Part shown: positions 4,193 through 11,863 of the stretch, piece by piece
How the letters are laid out: each line of letters opens with the position of its first letter
Numbering within the stretch: the first letter of the stretch is position 1
Virus record (IMG/VR): IMGVR_UViG_3300047322_000261
DNA from: an uncultured virus (IMG/VR IMGVR_UViG_3300047322_000261)
Lineage: Duplodnaviria > Heunggongvirae > Uroviricota > Caudoviricetes
Strand: one strand, 5' to 3'
DNA length: 20,000 bases
Program-made: the position numbers and the translations under genes
Notes under the pieces: generated by a model
Seen by the model: only the letters and a program-made list of their open reading frames with translations
Database searches by the model: none
What the model was told of the DNA's origin: nothing

Positions 4193-4784
4193 GTAGGAAG
4201 TCGTAGAATTTAGCGGCCAGCTTAACAATCTTTTCTGGACTTCCTTCTCCTGAAGCGGCAGACAGATCAACGGCAGCTTTAAGGGCTACCTGTTTCTCGA
4301 TTGACTCACGTTTGGTTTCCTCAGAAACGAACCTAGTGTTCTTAACCACCATCTCTGACGGTTTGGGTGTTAATTGCTCGGCTAACTCGTCTGTCTCGGT
4401 AGCGTTGAACACTTCCTTAACATCTTCCTCTGTAACAGGCCCACCTGTAACTTGGTCGATCTTAACGTGCTTCTCTACCTTAAGCTGTTTCTTTCCCTTG
4501 TATTCATCAACGGTGATTCCGCTAATCCTGCCCTTACTGTCTTCCTGAGCTAACAAGATAACATCTTCACCCTCAAGGTTGCGAAGGTCTAGGTTAAATC
4601 GGTTCCAAAAGGTAGCCCGAATCTCACCATCGAAATCCTTAAGGATAGCAGCCTGCATCTTCCAAGGCCTTCCGTTAGCTTCACCTTCCCCCGGTTCAAA
4701 CCCTTTCTTTACCTGAACTGCCAGTTTTAGGACTGGCGAACCCTTAGCTAGCTCATCAATATCCGCGATTGTAACTTGATTCAT
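4179..4784 (-). CDS. OB-fold single-stranded DNA-binding protein
   Basis: WKMQAAILKDFDGEIRATFW is an RPA/SSB-type OB-fold signature; acidic linker; C-terminal SIEKQVALKAAVD helix as in phage SSB-like proteins. Confidence 0.72.
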   Translation of the reverse strand: MNQVTIADIDELAKGSPVLKLAVQVKKGFEPGEGEANGRPWKMQAAILKDFDGEIRATFWNRFNLDLRNLEGEDVILLAQEDSKGRISGITVDEYKGKKQLKVEKHVKIDQVTGGPVTEEDVKEVFNATETDELAEQLTPKPSEMVVKNTRFVSEETKRESIEKQVALKAAVDLSAASGEGSPEKIVKLAAKFYDFLHGSA

Positions 4785-4793
4785 ATATGAATT

Positions 4794-4827
4794 AATATAG
4801 CACAGGTTTAACTAGCCACAACGGAAA
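4794..4827 (-). promoter_or_regulatory. Leftward promoter of the replication arm (extended -10)
   Basis: Minus strand TTTCCG-TTGTGG(4821-4816)-16 nt ending TGC-TATATT(4799-4794)-9 nt-ATG 4784. Confidence 0.6.
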
Positions 4828-4828
4828 T

Positions 4829-4857
4829 TTGACACACCCCTTCCAGTAACATAATAT
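4829..4857 (+). promoter_or_regulatory. Rightward sigma70-type promoter for the capsid leader/gene
   Basis: TTGACA(4829-4834)-17 nt-TAATAT(4852-4857), back-to-back with the leftward promoter. Confidence 0.75.
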
Positions 4858-4861
4858 AACA

Positions 4862-5085
4862 ATGGGACTGAAAGTAAGTCGCTGTAACCCTAAGCAGCCT
4901 CTAATATCCGTAACCTAGAGTAGTTAGCTTGTTACCCTGAGGTAACATGAACCGAGCTAGCATTGGTAACGAGAAGGGTTCGCAACATAAGTCGTGGAGC
5001 TACGTGTGTGGTTCCTGCGTTGCGTTCAAGAACCCTTTGGAGGCAATGTAAGACATAAATAAGGGTAACAGAAAGAATAACTTAT
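4862..5085 (+). ncRNA. Candidate structured 5' leader RNA of the major capsid gene
   Basis: Longest non-coding stretch in the window, almost fully tiled by helices: GACT/AGTC, GCTG/CAGC, CTCTA/TAGAG, GTTAGCT/AGCTAGC enclosing TGTTACC/GGTAACA, and CATTG/CAATG enclosing AAGGGTTC/GAACCCTT, GCAAC/GTTGC and GGAGCTAC/GTGGTTCC. Confidence 0.55.
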
Positions 5086-6291
5086 ATGGCTTATCCTAAT
5101 GACTGTCTGTCACCAGCAGTCGCACTGGACATTGCAAATAAGGATTCTCTACGTATCGTTGGGCAGGTTGCCATGACGATTGCGCAGCGTTCGGCATATA
5201 CCGACACGATTGACGGTGGGACATTGGAAAATGTTTCTGACGTTGTTCGTTCGATCACTGGCGAAGCTGCGGTTCCTTCTGCTTCTCTGACTCGACCCAT
5301 TTTCGTTCCCGCTGCTAACGCTTGCGGAACGGGTGGTGGCGTTGACCAGACAGGCACTACGGAATATCAATTCCAATTGATGAATCTTCGTGGCCGTGGG
5401 CCTAAGGTGTGTGTTAAGACTACGAGAACTGGCTTTATCTCCAGTTATACTCATGCTCTTAACTCGCTGAAACAGATGCTTGTCAGGTTGCAAAACGCGG
5501 ATATTCGCGCTAACTACTATGACAACTCTGGATGTAAGTGTATTGTAGACTCGACTGGGACGTTCGCACAGGACTTCGCAGGAGATGTTAATGCGCTTAG
5601 CACAGCGTTCCCTAGCAGGACACCTAATGCTCCGATTACGTTTCGTTCGCTTGAAGTTGTAATGACTTACATGCGTGAGACGTTAGGGGTTCAACCCGTT
5701 GACATGGCAGGCGTGCAGGAAGGTGTATTCAAATTCATCGGCTCGCAGTTTGCTATTCAGTCAATGCGCGATGAGCTTCACATCGGTCAGGACACCCGCG
5801 CCTTGGTTCAAGGTGGGTATGATCTAGGATATGAAACTGTGAGAGGCTACGGCTGGTCTGGGCCTTATCATGGTATTGTATTCGGGGTTGACCCTGAGCC
5901 GTTGAGAGGCACTACGCTTGCAGCGGGTGTTCTTACGCTCATTGAGCCCGGAACGGCAGTAGCTACAACCACAGGTTTTGGGTATCGTCCTAATGCCTCA
6001 TGGGTGTCTGCTACATACGAAGTAGGATTCTTGTTTGGTAAAAGCCCATTTGCACGATTGGTTCCGACCTATCAGAGAGTTCCCGGATGGGACTTCCCTG
6101 CTCAGATCGCCAATGGTGGATTGGACTTCAAGATTCTTAGCGACGCTGATTGCAATTTCTGGGAAGACTTCGGTCAACACAGATACGAAATTGAGCGAGC
6201 TTATCAGCCTATCCATCCTCATGCTGTGTGTGCCTTCATGGCAACACGCGCATCGTTTGGTGCTGGTTGGAGCAACGCGCTCACCTACTAA
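5086..6291 (+). CDS. Putative major capsid protein
   Basis: 401 aa, first gene of the structural arm, own strong promoter, followed by a GC-rich hairpin. From memory, segments such as IDGGTLENVSDVVRS, EYQFQL..LRG.GP.VCVK and DCN...DFGQH.Y.I.RA.QPI.P resemble capsid proteins of uncultured environmental phages; not verified by search. Confidence 0.75.
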   Translation: MAYPNDCLSPAVALDIANKDSLRIVGQVAMTIAQRSAYTDTIDGGTLENVSDVVRSITGEAAVPSASLTRPIFVPAANACGTGGGVDQTGTTEYQFQLMNLRGRGPKVCVKTTRTGFISSYTHALNSLKQMLVRLQNADIRANYYDNSGCKCIVDSTGTFAQDFAGDVNALSTAFPSRTPNAPITFRSLEVVMTYMRETLGVQPVDMAGVQEGVFKFIGSQFAIQSMRDELHIGQDTRALVQGGYDLGYETVRGYGWSGPYHGIVFGVDPEPLRGTTLAAGVLTLIEPGTAVATTTGFGYRPNASWVSATYEVGFLFGKSPFARLVPTYQRVPGWDFPAQIANGGLDFKILSDADCNFWEDFGQHRYEIERAYQPIHPHAVCAFMATRASFGAGWSNALTY

Positions 6292-6312
6292 TTAGTAGGG
6301 TAGAGTAACAGT

Positions 6313-6345
6313 AAGGCGGGGGAGTAAAATCCCTCGCCTTGCTTG
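6313..6345 (+). terminator. Hairpin after capsid gene, probable leaky intrinsic terminator
   Basis: AAGGCGGGGGA-GTAAAA-TCCCTCGCCTT 11-bp stem with one G-U; weak U tract (TTGCTTG) overlapping the next -35 box. Confidence 0.65.
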
Positions 6346-6368
6346 CTATATAGTCATAGCTGTAATAT
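6339..6368 (+). promoter_or_regulatory. Leaderless promoter for gene 6374
   Basis: TTGCTT(6339-6344)-18 nt ending TG-TAATAT(6363-6368)-5 nt-ATG. Confidence 0.65.
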
Positions 6369-6373
6369 CTAAT

Positions 6374-8614
6374 ATGCCCGACGCGCCCGGAAGACTAACA
6401 GTAATAACAGGAGATGCTGGTAAGTCTTCTTACGACATAGCAGTTAAACATGGCTTCATAGGAACAGAAGAAGACTACCTAAACTCCCTGCATGGAGCTA
6501 CTGGAAACTCTGGTGGGTTTATTAATAAAGGTAACTGGCTAACTGGAACTACCTACAACCCAAGTGATTATGTCTTTGATACCGCTACAGGCGGAGTGGG
6601 GGAATCGGTATGGCTAGTTAGGTCTACCCTGTCTTTTGTATCAACCACTCATCCCAAGGACGACCTAAGTAACTGGTTTGAGCATATACCCGGAACACCA
6701 TTTGTTCCTACAACTAGGTTGGTTTCAACCCAATACTCTATTCAGGGTGGTGGAGACCTATCTGCTGACAGAACGCTACAGTTAGTTAACGACGTATTAA
6801 CCCCCGGAATCAACAAGGTCTACGGGACTGACGGTGCTGGTGCTAGGGGTTGGCAAGCAGCGGGAGCGGGCGGGGGAACAGGAGATGTAATTTCTGATGT
6901 TGGTGTATCTGTAGCCGACGAGCTAGTAAAGTTTGCTGGAACAACCGGAAAGCATGTAACAAGGGCAACAGGAACAGGACTAGCTAAACTTACTTCTGGT
7001 GTTCTATCAACAATAACCGACAATTCAAGTAATTGGGATTCTGCCTTTACCGACAGACTTAAGTGGGATGGTGGTGCTACAGGTTTAGTAGCGGCTACTG
7101 GCCGGACTAGCCTAGGACTGGTTATAGGGACTAATGTGCAGGCTTGGGACACAGACCTAGACACATGGGCGACATTGACTCCTAGTGCCAATTTTCAAAC
7201 ATTGGTTCCTCACACCTTCGCACAAATACGAACAGACTTAGGGCTAGTCATAGGAACAAACGTTCAAGCATGGGACACTCAGCTCGATTCGCTTGCTGCG
7301 CTTTCTTACACAGGAAACACACTAAAGGTAGTCCGTGTTAATGCTGGAGAAACAGGATTTGAGTTAGCTACAGTGGCGGGTGGAAGCGGAACAGTGACCA
7401 GCATAGCCACCACTTCGCCAATTACGGGCGGAACAATCACAACCACTGGAACGATAGCACTGGATGTTAGTGTAGATCACGCATTTACTGCGGCTCAAGG
7501 CATTACCCTGAGCGATGCCGCAACCAATACCGCGCCTAATCTACTTACTCTTGTTCATAATTCTTCTGCAACCCCGGCCGCGAATTTTGGTGCGGGCATA
7601 TTACTCAAGGCTAAAGACTCTACAACCAACAGTCAAGACCTAGCCGGACTGTCATCATACTGGGTTACGGCTACACATGGCAGCACTAAGTCCAATTTAG
7701 AATTTAAGGCAGTTTCAGCATCGGCACTAGGCGCACTGATGACACTGAAGGGAACAGGCTCTACTGGTGTTGGTATTTTAGATTTCCCGGGTGCAGGAGG
7801 ATTGACATTTAGTGGCGTTGCCACAATCGGAAAGATAGTTATTGGCGACGGAACGTCATGTAAACTTAGCGCGTCTACCTATCCAGATGGACAAGGCTCA
7901 ACTGGACATGTTGTCATCAGTAGCGGTGGTAACTACGTCGAATCTACCCCAACATTCCCTAACGCATCTGCTACAACCAAGAAGGTAATCAAGTCAGACG
8001 GGACTAACTGGGTAGAATCTACTGAGACATATGACGCGCCCGGAACCAGCGGTAATTTAATGCAGTCAGATGGGACTAACTGGACAAGCGTAACTCCCAA
8101 GACTCAAGTGTTTGCTGACGCACCAAACAGTATCGTTGCGATAAACGTCTTAACGGGTGCCCCAGCTACACTCGTAACAAAAAGTATAACATATTCCGCA
8201 GGGGACACCGTTATTATTACCGCGTTTGGCCAAATTGTAAATAACTCAGGGGCAGTAGCAACGTATTCCATTAAGTTTAACATTGGGTCAATGACTGCAA
8301 CGATGGCCTTCGCTGGAACCGTGGCAGCATCAGCAACGGTTAGAACGCCGGTCGAGATACAATTAGTCGTCAGTATTCTATCTACTTCGTCAGCTTGGTT
8401 GTTCGGGCGAGACTTGGCGGCGGTCGGGGCTAATTTAGGGACAGCTTCAGGAATTAACGCGACAAACTTTTGCCGATACGTGAACCAGCAAAGTTCATCC
8501 AACCTAACTGGAGCGCAAACCACAAACGTTCAAATGTTTTCTAGCACTAACACGGCGACTCAAAGTTTTGAACTGGCGGCTTACACTATCCAAAAATTTA
8601 CTACTAACCCATAA
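6374..8614 (+). CDS. Fibre-like virion protein (tail or head fibre), 746 aa
   Basis: G/T/S/A-rich; GKSSYDIAV..GF.GTEEDYL.SL motif, GGGDLSADRTL, two LGLVIGTNVQAWD repeats, GSGTVTSI, two SDGTNW repeats, all typical phage fibre modules. Confidence 0.78.
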   Translation: MPDAPGRLTVITGDAGKSSYDIAVKHGFIGTEEDYLNSLHGATGNSGGFINKGNWLTGTTYNPSDYVFDTATGGVGESVWLVRSTLSFVSTTHPKDDLSNWFEHIPGTPFVPTTRLVSTQYSIQGGGDLSADRTLQLVNDVLTPGINKVYGTDGAGARGWQAAGAGGGTGDVISDVGVSVADELVKFAGTTGKHVTRATGTGLAKLTSGVLSTITDNSSNWDSAFTDRLKWDGGATGLVAATGRTSLGLVIGTNVQAWDTDLDTWATLTPSANFQTLVPHTFAQIRTDLGLVIGTNVQAWDTQLDSLAALSYTGNTLKVVRVNAGETGFELATVAGGSGTVTSIATTSPITGGTITTTGTIALDVSVDHAFTAAQGITLSDAATNTAPNLLTLVHNSSATPAANFGAGILLKAKDSTTNSQDLAGLSSYWVTATHGSTKSNLEFKAVSASALGALMTLKGTGSTGVGILDFPGAGGLTFSGVATIGKIVIGDGTSCKLSASTYPDGQGSTGHVVISSGGNYVESTPTFPNASATTKKVIKSDGTNWVESTETYDAPGTSGNLMQSDGTNWTSVTPKTQVFADAPNSIVAINVLTGAPATLVTKSITYSAGDTVIITAFGQIVNNSGAVATYSIKFNIGSMTATMAFAGTVAASATVRTPVEIQLVVSILSTSSAWLFGRDLAAVGANLGTASGINATNFCRYVNQQSSSNLTGAQTTNVQMFSSTNTATQSFELAAYTIQKFTTNP

Positions 8615-8626
8615 CCTGAACCAGAC

Positions 8627-8656
8627 TTGCCATAAACTTATTCAGGAATGTAATAT
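8627..8656 (+). promoter_or_regulatory. Leaderless promoter for gene 8662
   Basis: TTGCCA(8627-8632)-18 nt ending TG-TAATAT(8651-8656)-5 nt-ATG. Confidence 0.7.
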
Positions 8657-8661
8657 AACAC

Positions 8662-8976: not shown

Positions 8977-9386
8977 TGTGGAAAAGATTTTACTTTAAGC
9001 CGTTCGAGGGGTTTATTGGGTTGTTTGTTATTGTCAACGGCTGGCTAACGTTGTTCCCAGTAGCAGAAGGTGGCTCTGCCGTTAAAGACAACCTATGGAA
9101 CCTTATGGGATACGGAGGTATCGCTATACCTATATTCCAAATCGTAGCGGGGTTACTTAAGGTGGTCGGAATAGCAATAAACAAGGCAAACCTAGAAGCT
9201 GCTGGACTTATTCTTGTTACGGCCATGTTCGGAATACGAGCAATCAGTCTTGTGTCTGACGGGGATGTTACAAACTCCGACATTAATAACTTGGTCATAG
9301 CTGTAGGAATCATGGCATCCAACATCATAAGGATAACCCAAGTAAGCAACAATCATGGGTTTATCATAACAGAAAGAAAGATTTAA
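8976..9386 (+). CDS. Integral membrane protein with about 4 TM helices, holin candidate
   Basis: Four hydrophobic stretches in 136 aa, located in the lysis region. Confidence 0.6.
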   Translation: MWKRFYFKPFEGFIGLFVIVNGWLTLFPVAEGGSAVKDNLWNLMGYGGIAIPIFQIVAGLLKVVGIAINKANLEAAGLILVTAMFGIRAISLVSDGDVTNSDINNLVIAVGIMASNIIRITQVSNNHGFIITERKI

Positions 9387-9394
9387 CACTAGGT

Positions 9395-9715
9395 ATGGAT
9401 TACGCTCCCGTAGTGACAGGTATTATTTCTTTCATCTTCGGGGGTGGACTTGTATCCGCTGCTGTGGCACTGTATAAGGTAAAGCCGGAAGCTGGCATGA
9501 TAGTCGTTTCGGCTGCACAGGGGGCCTTAGTAGTGCAAACAGGAGTTATAGATAATCTACAAAAAGAAATAACAAGACTTGGTCAAGAAGTTGAAGAACT
9601 TAAGGCTAAGTTAGATGATAGAGATAAGTTAATCATGGTGTTACAGAACAAGCTATTGTCTATGTCTACGTCGCAGGAAATCCACGACACCCAAATCAAA
9701 GACTTGCAGAAATAA
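9395..9715 (+). CDS. Single-TM plus coiled-coil protein (holin/antiholin-like)
   Basis: VVTGIISFIFGGGLVSAAVAL TM followed by heptads IDNLQKEITRLGQEVEELKAKL. Confidence 0.6.
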   Translation: MDYAPVVTGIISFIFGGGLVSAAVALYKVKPEAGMIVVSAAQGALVVQTGVIDNLQKEITRLGQEVEELKAKLDDRDKLIMVLQNKLLSMSTSQEIHDTQIKDLQK

Positions 9716-9751
9716 TTTCCGTTGCTATGCCTTGTTTCAGGCTTGTATAAT
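9716..9751 (+). promoter_or_regulatory. Leaderless promoter for gene 9757
   Basis: TTTCCG-TTGCTA(9722-9727)-18 nt ending TG-TATAAT(9746-9751)-5 nt-ATG. Confidence 0.75.
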
Positions 9752-9756
9752 ATAAC

Positions 9757-11831: not shown

Positions 11832-11857
11832 CCTTCTCATAGCTCGGAATGTAAAAT
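11828..11857 (+). promoter_or_regulatory. Leaderless promoter for gene 11864 and the tail operon
   Basis: TTGACC(11828-11833)-18 nt ending TG-TAAAAT(11852-11857)-6 nt-GTG. Confidence 0.65.
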
Positions 11858-11863
11858 GTAGGT

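Follow-up and report, generated by a model that had tools for sequence, protein, structure and literature searches.

A multi-helix leader predicted ahead of the major capsid gene in an uncultured soil phage

The 20,000-nucleotide stretch analyzed here (the window; IMG/VR record IMGVR_UViG_3300047322_000261, an uncultured member of the Caudoviricetes) carries, between a sigma-70-type promoter and the gene for the major capsid protein, a segment of about 222 nucleotides (nt) that would be transcribed as an untranslated, multi-helix leader of the capsid mRNA (4863..5085, + strand). The leftward genes up to 4784 have replication functions (primase/helicase, exonuclease and HNH endonuclease), and from 5086 onward the rightward genes have structural functions; matches to tail fibres and tail spikes are among them. 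The promoter (4829..4857, + strand) was found by a promoter scan with 10 of 12 consensus matches (TTGACA at 4829-4834, a 17-nt spacer and TAATAT at 4852-4857), and from it a transcription start is predicted at approximately 4863-4865. Close to 5086, where a preliminary description of this DNA had named an alternative start as evidence against a leader, the scan lists no promoter-like site, and none there that is better than 4829-4857. The assignment of the leader draws on its predicted folding, on its poverty in open reading frames (ORFs; the longest within the gap encodes 34 amino acids [aa]) and on the lack of an Rfam match: searched over the whole window, Rfam 15 gave no match at the gathering score, in agreement with the earlier statement that no known RNA family is recognizable.

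The length of this leader makes the capsid gene the exception among the promoters of the window. Four rightward promoters of the form TTGnnn-18-TG-n-TAnnnT (6345-6373, 8633-8661, 9728-9756 and 11834-11863) stop 5-6 nt ahead of the start codons at 6374, 8662, 9757 and 11864, and a leftward promoter (4785-4815, TTGTGG-17-TATATT, recognized by eye) stands 9 nt ahead of the leftward start at 4784. The genes just behind these five promoters probably give leaderless or nearly leaderless mRNAs, and internal genes have GGAG-type Shine-Dalgarno sequences. The preliminary description had drawn the same contrast between one long leader and several promoters close to start codons, and the contrast holds; it had counted six such promoters, of which we could verify five (one of them by eye).

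The product of the 401-aa ORF that follows the leader (5086..6291, + strand) has neither a Pfam nor a PHROG match, and its 295 homologues are all unnamed. An AlphaFold model built on 31 homologues (predicted local distance difference test [pLDDT] 63) was compared with the PDB by Foldseek; the matches listed are all phage or phage-like capsids (best 9vye_A, E 5.6e-5), which justifies the label of major capsid protein, with an HK97 fold, for this gene. Just past its stop codon lies a terminator-like, GC-rich hairpin with a stem of 14 base pairs (6310..6343, + strand) that overlaps the -35 element of the next promoter. The 91-nt stretch containing this hairpin folds at -35.4 kcal/mol (z -5.5, with none of 200 shuffles equaling it), the U-tract behind it is weak (UUGCUUGCU), and the terminator scan of the window did not list it. 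It is likely to be a terminator or a 3' stabilizer, in which case the capsid gene would be its own transcription unit, and the capsid mRNA is probably monocistronic. The terminal part of the capsid gene (5781-6360) itself folds better than the leader (z -4.1 and -4.7, 15 shuffles per window).

We evaluated the folding of the leader against shuffled sequences on both strands. On the + strand the folding energy is -74 kcal/mol (z -3.31, with 1 of 200 shuffles as good), and an independent shuffle control gave z -3.50 with none of 100 shuffles as good. The reverse strand gave z -0.07 and -0.38 in the two controls; a + strand that folds, together with a reverse strand near zero, favors an RNA over a DNA element. 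The structured leader ahead of the capsid gene that was originally proposed is thereby borne out: it is long, promoter-proximal and strand-specific in its folding, and the Foldseek matches show the gene behind it to be a real capsid gene.

The predicted fold is organized around a core domain (4897..5044, + strand), in which a closing helix (GCCUCUAA at 4897-4904 with UUGGAGGC at 5037-5044) surrounds two arms. Arm 1 (4907..4972, + strand) consists of an outer helix, an inner hairpin UGUUACC-CUGA-GGUAACA (4930-4947) with pair probabilities of 0.90-1.00 for six of its seven pairs and 0.57 for the outermost, and a 3' bulge UGAACCG. Arm 2 (4975..5036, + strand), the part of the leader with the best conservation, is built from the helix AGGGUUC/GAACCCU, the helix GCAAC/GUUGC (4982-4986 with 5019-5023) and a tip hairpin, GGAGCUAC-GUGU-GUGGUUCC (4996-5015), with pair probabilities of 0.92-0.99. 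RNase III cuts phage transcripts at hairpins of the T7 R-site type, which are irregular, about 20 base pairs long and interrupted by an internal loop; arm 2, with 20 predicted pairs and internal loops, may be said to resemble such a processing hairpin, as a likeness of shape only. Downstream of the core, an element just ahead of the ribosome-binding site (RBS), AGGGUAACAG (5062..5071, + strand), is nearly always paired with varying partners (unpaired probability of 0.00-0.06 for 5062-5066; the partner is 4882-4891 at approximately 0.38, and others otherwise). It is followed by an A-rich initiation region (5072..5088, + strand) with a weak Shine-Dalgarno-like GAAAG and the start codon at 5086, where the last 15 nt or so before the AUG are mostly open (mean unpaired probability of 0.56 from -20 to -1).

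The block ACAGAAAGA of the initiation region recurs ahead of the gene at 9395 and in the capsid leaders of relatives. We also note that the block ACAGAAAGAA is present at 5068-5077 and at about 9365-9375, ahead of the capsid start and of the start at 9395, and that blocks like it, namely UUAACAGAAAG, precede the capsid genes of relatives; this group of phages may use it as a signal for translation initiation.

The preliminary description had gone further and proposed, as one possibility, a two-state leader acting as a cis-acting translational switch. In a riboswitch-like or thermosensing version of this model, 4930-4938 would toggle between the local hairpin and a helix with 5062-5070 by the RBS. 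Its coordinates and complementarities are correct. TGTTACCCT (4930-4938) is perfectly complementary to AGGGTAACA (5062-5070), TGTTACC (4930-4936) is complementary to GGTAACA (4941-4947) according to our repeat search, AACCCT (4886-4891) and AGGGTT (4975-4980) as well as GCCTC (4897-4901) and GAGGC (5040-5044) are present where they had been placed, and the capsid ATG lies at 5086, 15 nt past 5070. Both alternatives for 4930-4938 thus exist and are perfect, the pre-RBS element is always paired and has several possible partners, and the pre-RBS blocks of relatives also have more than one complement (by eye). In the ensemble, however, the long helix has a probability of 0.000, and forcing it costs 5.8 kcal/mol (-68.5 versus -74.3 kcal/mol), so that two mutually exclusive folds of comparable energy were not found. 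Of the two pairings described as competing, AACCCT/AGGGTT has a probability of 0.002 and GCCUC/GAGGC is instead part of the stable closing helix (probability 0.99 for 4897-4901 with 5040-5044). Neither an RBS-hiding nor a terminator-forming expression platform was detected: the RBS region is predicted to be open, the Shine-Dalgarno-like region and the AUG are about equally open in either state, and the terminator scan lists nothing within 4862-5085. The long helix is also not conserved in the closest relative (L081, described below), which has no 5' partner for the pre-RBS element and in which the equivalent element, UAGGGUUA, pairs locally with UAACCCUA. Given, in addition, that this type of leader has no conserved core resembling a ligand pocket and no Rfam riboswitch match, we consider such a switch highly improbable.

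Close relatives of the capsid protein were found on metagenome contigs, with identities of 94% (L081), 87% (L082), 84% (L083 and L084) and 80% (L085). The leaders of L081, L082 and L083 (about 175-242 nt) each lie behind the TTGACAC -35 block that they have in common with the window and a -10-like box. When the window's leader was searched against all upstream regions with nhmmer, only that of L081 could be aligned with it. Between these two, arm 2 keeps 20 of 20 pairs, two of them by changes on both sides; its lower stem is identical on both strands, and its asymmetric loop is also invariant (fourfold-degenerate sites of the capsid gene are 73% identical). Arm 1 has the same layout in the centroid fold of L081 (outer helix, inner hairpin and a 3' bulge AGAACC, compared by eye), with unrelated helix sequences. 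L082 and L083 share a leader that differs from the window's, with a repeated word of its own, GGCCGUGCU, present twice, and a helix GUGUGUC/GACACAC ahead of the RBS. Structural conservation in relatives, on which the preliminary description had made its proposal depend, is thus found in part: long folded leaders are kept, as are the pairs of arm 2 in L081, but one relative only is alignable. DNA contigs from three further soil or rhizosphere runs show no difference from the window in those portions of the leader that they span and therefore provide no variation for covariation tests, and an exact-word scan of IMG/VR for the arm-2 strand gave no matches.

The invariance of the lower stem and asymmetric loop of arm 2 against L081, despite 27% change at fourfold sites, speaks for a protein operator. 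In that case a host factor, or a protein of the phage such as the capsid, the scaffold or some other late factor, would bind the arm-2 stem or the GUAAC words and so adjust the translation or decay of the capsid message, much as in the autogenous control of T4 gene 32. The five copies of GTAAC within 4862-5085 that the preliminary description had reported were confirmed by count, and a sixth lies at 4846 in the promoter spacer; elsewhere in the window the word occurs 0.57 times per 224 nt. No mononucleotide shuffle of the leader among 2,000 reached five copies of GTAAC, and 35 of 2,000 reached five copies of any 5-mer. The operator explanation is also favored by the repeated word that L082 and L083 have in place of GUAAC and by the fast turnover of leaders between clades, which is expected under co-evolution with a phage protein. 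The T4 gene 32 leader is laid out as a folded 5' element with a pseudoknot nucleation site, followed by an unstructured A/U-rich tract that extends to the start codon. The structured domain and open A-rich tract of the window's leader resemble this layout, and pseudoknots are found in the corresponding element of a more distant clade (see below). On the other side, the binding partner is putative, the gene downstream encodes a capsid rather than a single-strand binding protein, and no pseudoknot was noticed in the window's leader by the nested folding used. The repeated words differ among close relatives (GTAAC has one, zero and zero copies in L081, L082 and L083), at structural positions that are not comparable. 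The T4 gene 32 mRNA leader is described as an autogenous translational operator (PMC535899, PMC3014915); for the capsid leader we regard a mechanism of this kind as possible, although well short of likely.

To place the leader in a wider family, the capsid alignment was used to fetch 80 IMG/VR and 80 metagenome loci, which yielded 76 distinct upstream gaps of 120-400 nt (mostly 215-260 nt, without a long ORF). The mean z over these gaps is -3.12 on the + strand versus -1.95 on the - strand (15 shuffles each); 55 of the 76 have z below -2, and 55 of the 76 fold better on the + strand. Averaged over the 76 leaders, bases upstream of -45 are unpaired with a probability of about 0.3 and those between -35 and -1 with one of about 0.55, and promoter-like TTGAC...TAnnnT boxes stand directly ahead of the leaders in all clades (by eye). 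What the family conserves is an arrangement rather than one RNA family: a promoter is followed by a long folded leader, which gives way to an open, A-rich start region ahead of the capsid gene. The leader of the window is a poorly sampled variant of that arrangement.

The best-sampled variant belongs to a distant clade, in which 40 upstream gaps make one sequence cluster. From 36 of these 40 we derived by hand a structure with seven nested and three crossing helices. In a test alignment made with MAFFT, and not fitted to the structure, 78.7% of cells pair (62.3% in shuffles), and the covariation score is 0.407 versus 0.161 in shuffles (reached by 0 of 500) and 0.07-0.135 in slid controls. Two of the crossing helices, which lie outside the covariance model built for this RNA (R1; 172 positions, with helices P1, P2 and P3 and those downstream), are 87% and 95% paired with compensatory changes in a model-fitted alignment, and support for the third is weak. 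R1 matches 72 of the 80 IMG/VR and 15 of the 80 metagenome loci (87 of 160), always on the capsid strand; in 8 of the 87 the match is partial and comprises only model positions 63-99, the P3/pseudoknot block. The RNA is about 170 nt long and is located at the start of the capsid operon (for example, L050 2281-2459, and 86 other loci), with its 3' end usually 35-60 nt ahead of the capsid ATG. Like the leader of the window, it lies behind a TTGAC...TAnnnT promoter and ahead of a homologous capsid operon, is comparable in length and has an open A-rich tract behind it; unlike it, it has two supported pseudoknots and the conserved single-stranded blocks CAGGCCG and UCCGUAU, which the window lacks. 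This double-pseudoknot RNA is in no Rfam family (the leaders of relatives gave no Rfam match at the gathering score in 20 loci and none at E up to 1 in 7 loci), and as a by-product of the analysis it is a stronger finding than the window's own leader.

A second, intermediate clade (L001, L089, L092, L094 and L097, with capsid proteins 52-53% identical) has a conserved leader of about 180 nt (at approximately 2322-2506; mean column identity 77%), for which a covariance model of 182 positions (R2) was built. R2 gave no match to the window's leader even with filters off; by eye, however, two features look common to the intermediate clade and the window. One is the helix at the base of arm 2 (AAGGGUUC/GAACCCUU, enclosing a hairpin that varies; a similar AAGGGUU.../...AACCCUU helix is present in all five members), and the other is the ACAGAAAGA block, the pre-RBS block of the clade being UUAACAGAAAG. 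The first block of this leader, CCCAGCCAG, recurs about 25 nt ahead of the start of another gene (L092 4505-4546 and L094 4324-4363), and the capsid leader of L092 and L094 has the appearance of a standard short leader into which about 144 nt have been inserted. A degenerate 15-mer taken from the intermediate-clade leader occurs in at least 120 places, apparently chance GC-rich matches, and was not used.

In a sub-clade of the distant relatives, a gene with an FGE-sulfatase domain (PF03781, E 1e-21 to 1e-24) lies between the R1 RNA and the capsid gene in four of four loci tested (L039 1486-2469, L042 1456-2439, L141 1486-2448 and L144 234-1004), so that the RNA is approximately 1 kb upstream of the capsid gene; because this gene intervenes, the RNA belongs to the operon start, or promoter, rather than to the capsid start. 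The protein of L141 has a hydrophobic, signal-peptide-like N-terminus. An RNA tied to the promoter in this way would also suit a separate, stable noncoding RNA, freed by processing or termination and acting in trans or in assembly, with the capsid translated from the remainder of the transcript or by read-through; the leader of the window has its own promoter, and its core (4897-5044) is compact and closed by a stable helix. Against this, no termination site is listed by the scan between promoter and capsid gene, there is no second promoter near 5086 that would serve the capsid gene, most loci have the RNA end within 35-60 nt of the capsid ATG, and the sequencing runs listed for this DNA include no RNA. 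We judge a freestanding RNA to be very unlikely.

The same position, directly behind a promoter that opens the structural block, together with the retention of the promoter-plus-leader arrangement across the family, recalls two long leaders that open late structural genes, namely the lambda late leader (PR'-6S RNA-tR', with Q) and the put RNAs of HK022, and a leader that modifies the polymerase would enable it to resist termination as it transcribes the structural genes. Unlike these, the leader of the window contains no intrinsic terminator detected by the scan, has no resemblance to put and no Rfam match, and heads a structural block with several internal promoters. The terminator-like hairpin and the new promoter after the capsid gene, moreover, make long-range anti-termination seem unnecessary, and this explanation appears to us slightly less plausible still than a freestanding RNA.

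The reading that we favor, with about even confidence, is that the stretch would be a constitutive, cis-acting leader, possibly with a factor bound to it, through which a capsid mRNA transcribed on its own is stabilized and translated. Host RNA polymerase would start at about 4863 from the sigma-70-type promoter, pass through some 222 nt of leader and then through the capsid gene, and probably stop, or have its transcript stabilized, at the hairpin at 6310-6343. The analysis shows the promoter consensus, the length of the leader, its predicted fold and strand asymmetry and a partial structural conservation; the transcript ends, like the role in stability and translation, are what we infer from the sequence. 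The leader would fold into the core and its two long irregular arms, leaving the last 15 nt or so before the AUG open and A-rich. In this form it would shield the late message in heaviest use at its 5' end and offer ribosomes a Shine-Dalgarno-poor start in an open context, giving capsid protein in large amounts, with neighboring genes meanwhile using leaderless starts; the invariant lower stem of arm 2 would be a candidate nuclease or protein site. The leaders of Escherichia coli ompA and of T7 gene 10 are 5' stabilizer or enhancer leaders of highly expressed mRNAs. The window's leader is like them in being a structured, promoter-proximal 5' untranslated region of a very highly expressed structural gene, with helices upstream of an open initiation region; it is unlike them in its length and its multi-branched fold, in having no strong Shine-Dalgarno sequence and no sequence relation to them, and in being known from sequence alone.

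Several results weigh against this reading, and some of them speak for a functionless spacer, that is, mosaic intergenic DNA at the junction of replication and structural genes whose good folding is due to chance or to its repeated words. Although its folding is good, the leader is no outlier inside the window: among 111 sliding windows of 238 nt on the transcribed strand (15 shuffles each; mean z -0.55, standard deviation 1.27, minimum -4.7 at the end of the capsid gene), 3-4 fold as well as the leader or better, so that it ranks about fourth. In the comparison with L081, the leader shows no more conservation than synonymous sites do (identity of 75% in the 3' domain and 53% in the 5' half, versus 73% at fourfold sites), the 5' half cannot be aligned, and the core closing helix is absent from L081. 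The leaders of L081 (z -1.56, a value equaled by 8 of 100 shuffles) and L083 (z -1.64) have just a slight advantage over shuffles in their folding; L082 has z -3.44. For the fold of the window itself, the covariation comes from two sequences. Homology to a well-supported motif is unsupported, because the leader fits neither covariance model: up to an E of 10, R1 found nothing within 4785-5100, whether the filters were at their defaults or off (its best match in the window with filters off, E 3.5, lies in coding sequence), and R2 gave none against the leader with filters off. The lack of RNA among the listed runs counts here as well, and a role as stabilizer or enhancer would be a generic one. 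A mere spacer, on the other hand, would not be expected to keep its length and foldability across 76 distinct gaps, to show clear covariation in the best-sampled clade, to fold in a strand-asymmetric manner or to have invariant arm-2 stems with pairs kept via compensatory changes, and we consider it unlikely.

Structured leaders ahead of phage head genes are already known as candidates, and the RNA of the window is itself in no Rfam family. They include GP20-a and GP20-b (RF02991 and RF03003) and the candidates upstream of a major capsid protein domain that Fremin et al. (2023, PMC10690425) describe; like the window's leader, these are RNA candidates from comparative genomics that lie directly upstream of phage head genes. 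Unlike GP20-a and GP20-b, both of which are held in Rfam 15, the present leaders have no match to it, either in the window or in 20 loci of relatives. The searchable supplement text of PMC10690425, which does not include files 1, 2 and 4, contained none of four short words taken from the distant-clade motif.

The capsid protein is the most abundantly made phage product, and how uncultured phages secure such output is largely unknown. At this locus the promoter-proximal genes appear leaderless, and a long folded leader is present on the capsid gene only. If such leaders set the lifetime or translation of the mRNA, they would constitute a compact, portable expression module and a regulatory principle that is family-wide; should a protein bind them, capsid synthesis would be tied through them to head assembly. 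In its most far-reaching form, which we hold to be doubtful, the capsid operons of the family (from soil, freshwater and marine samples, in genomes of about 60-78 kb) would all open with a dedicated promoter and a fast-evolving structured leader. The window's leader and the double-pseudoknot RNA would then solve a single task in different ways: each would provide a 5' module, resistant to nucleases or sensing a protein, by which capsid output is matched to the state of infection or of head assembly. They would represent a new class of phage late-gene control element.

The remaining observations concern candidates set aside and the provenance of the window. An 18-codon ORF at 4862-4918 begins 4 nt past the -10 element, placed like the leaderless genes; it is probably fortuitous and, because a start codon at the same spot is absent in L081, L082 and L083, it was rejected as a conserved feature. 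The best sub-threshold Rfam match within 4700-5200, to the small RNA P36 (18.1 bits versus a cut-off of 36, E 0.37), was likewise not retained. A cultured-phage collection contained no relative of the window, by DNA or by protein, and a single-protein search of IMG/VR gave no close relative. Matches in a genome collection were to three contigs of metagenome-assembled genomes with discordant taxa (Chthoniobacter, Peribacteraceae and Rhodoferax), and because these are inconsistent we make no host call. There are faint hints of mosaic or module boundaries at both ends of the leader, 4863 and 5082. Low-depth contigs from other soil runs (X4 and X3) match the window exactly on one side of 4863 or 5082 and are divergent on the other; one such contig is identical from 4863 on and diverges just upstream, which would fit a module boundary at the predicted transcription start.

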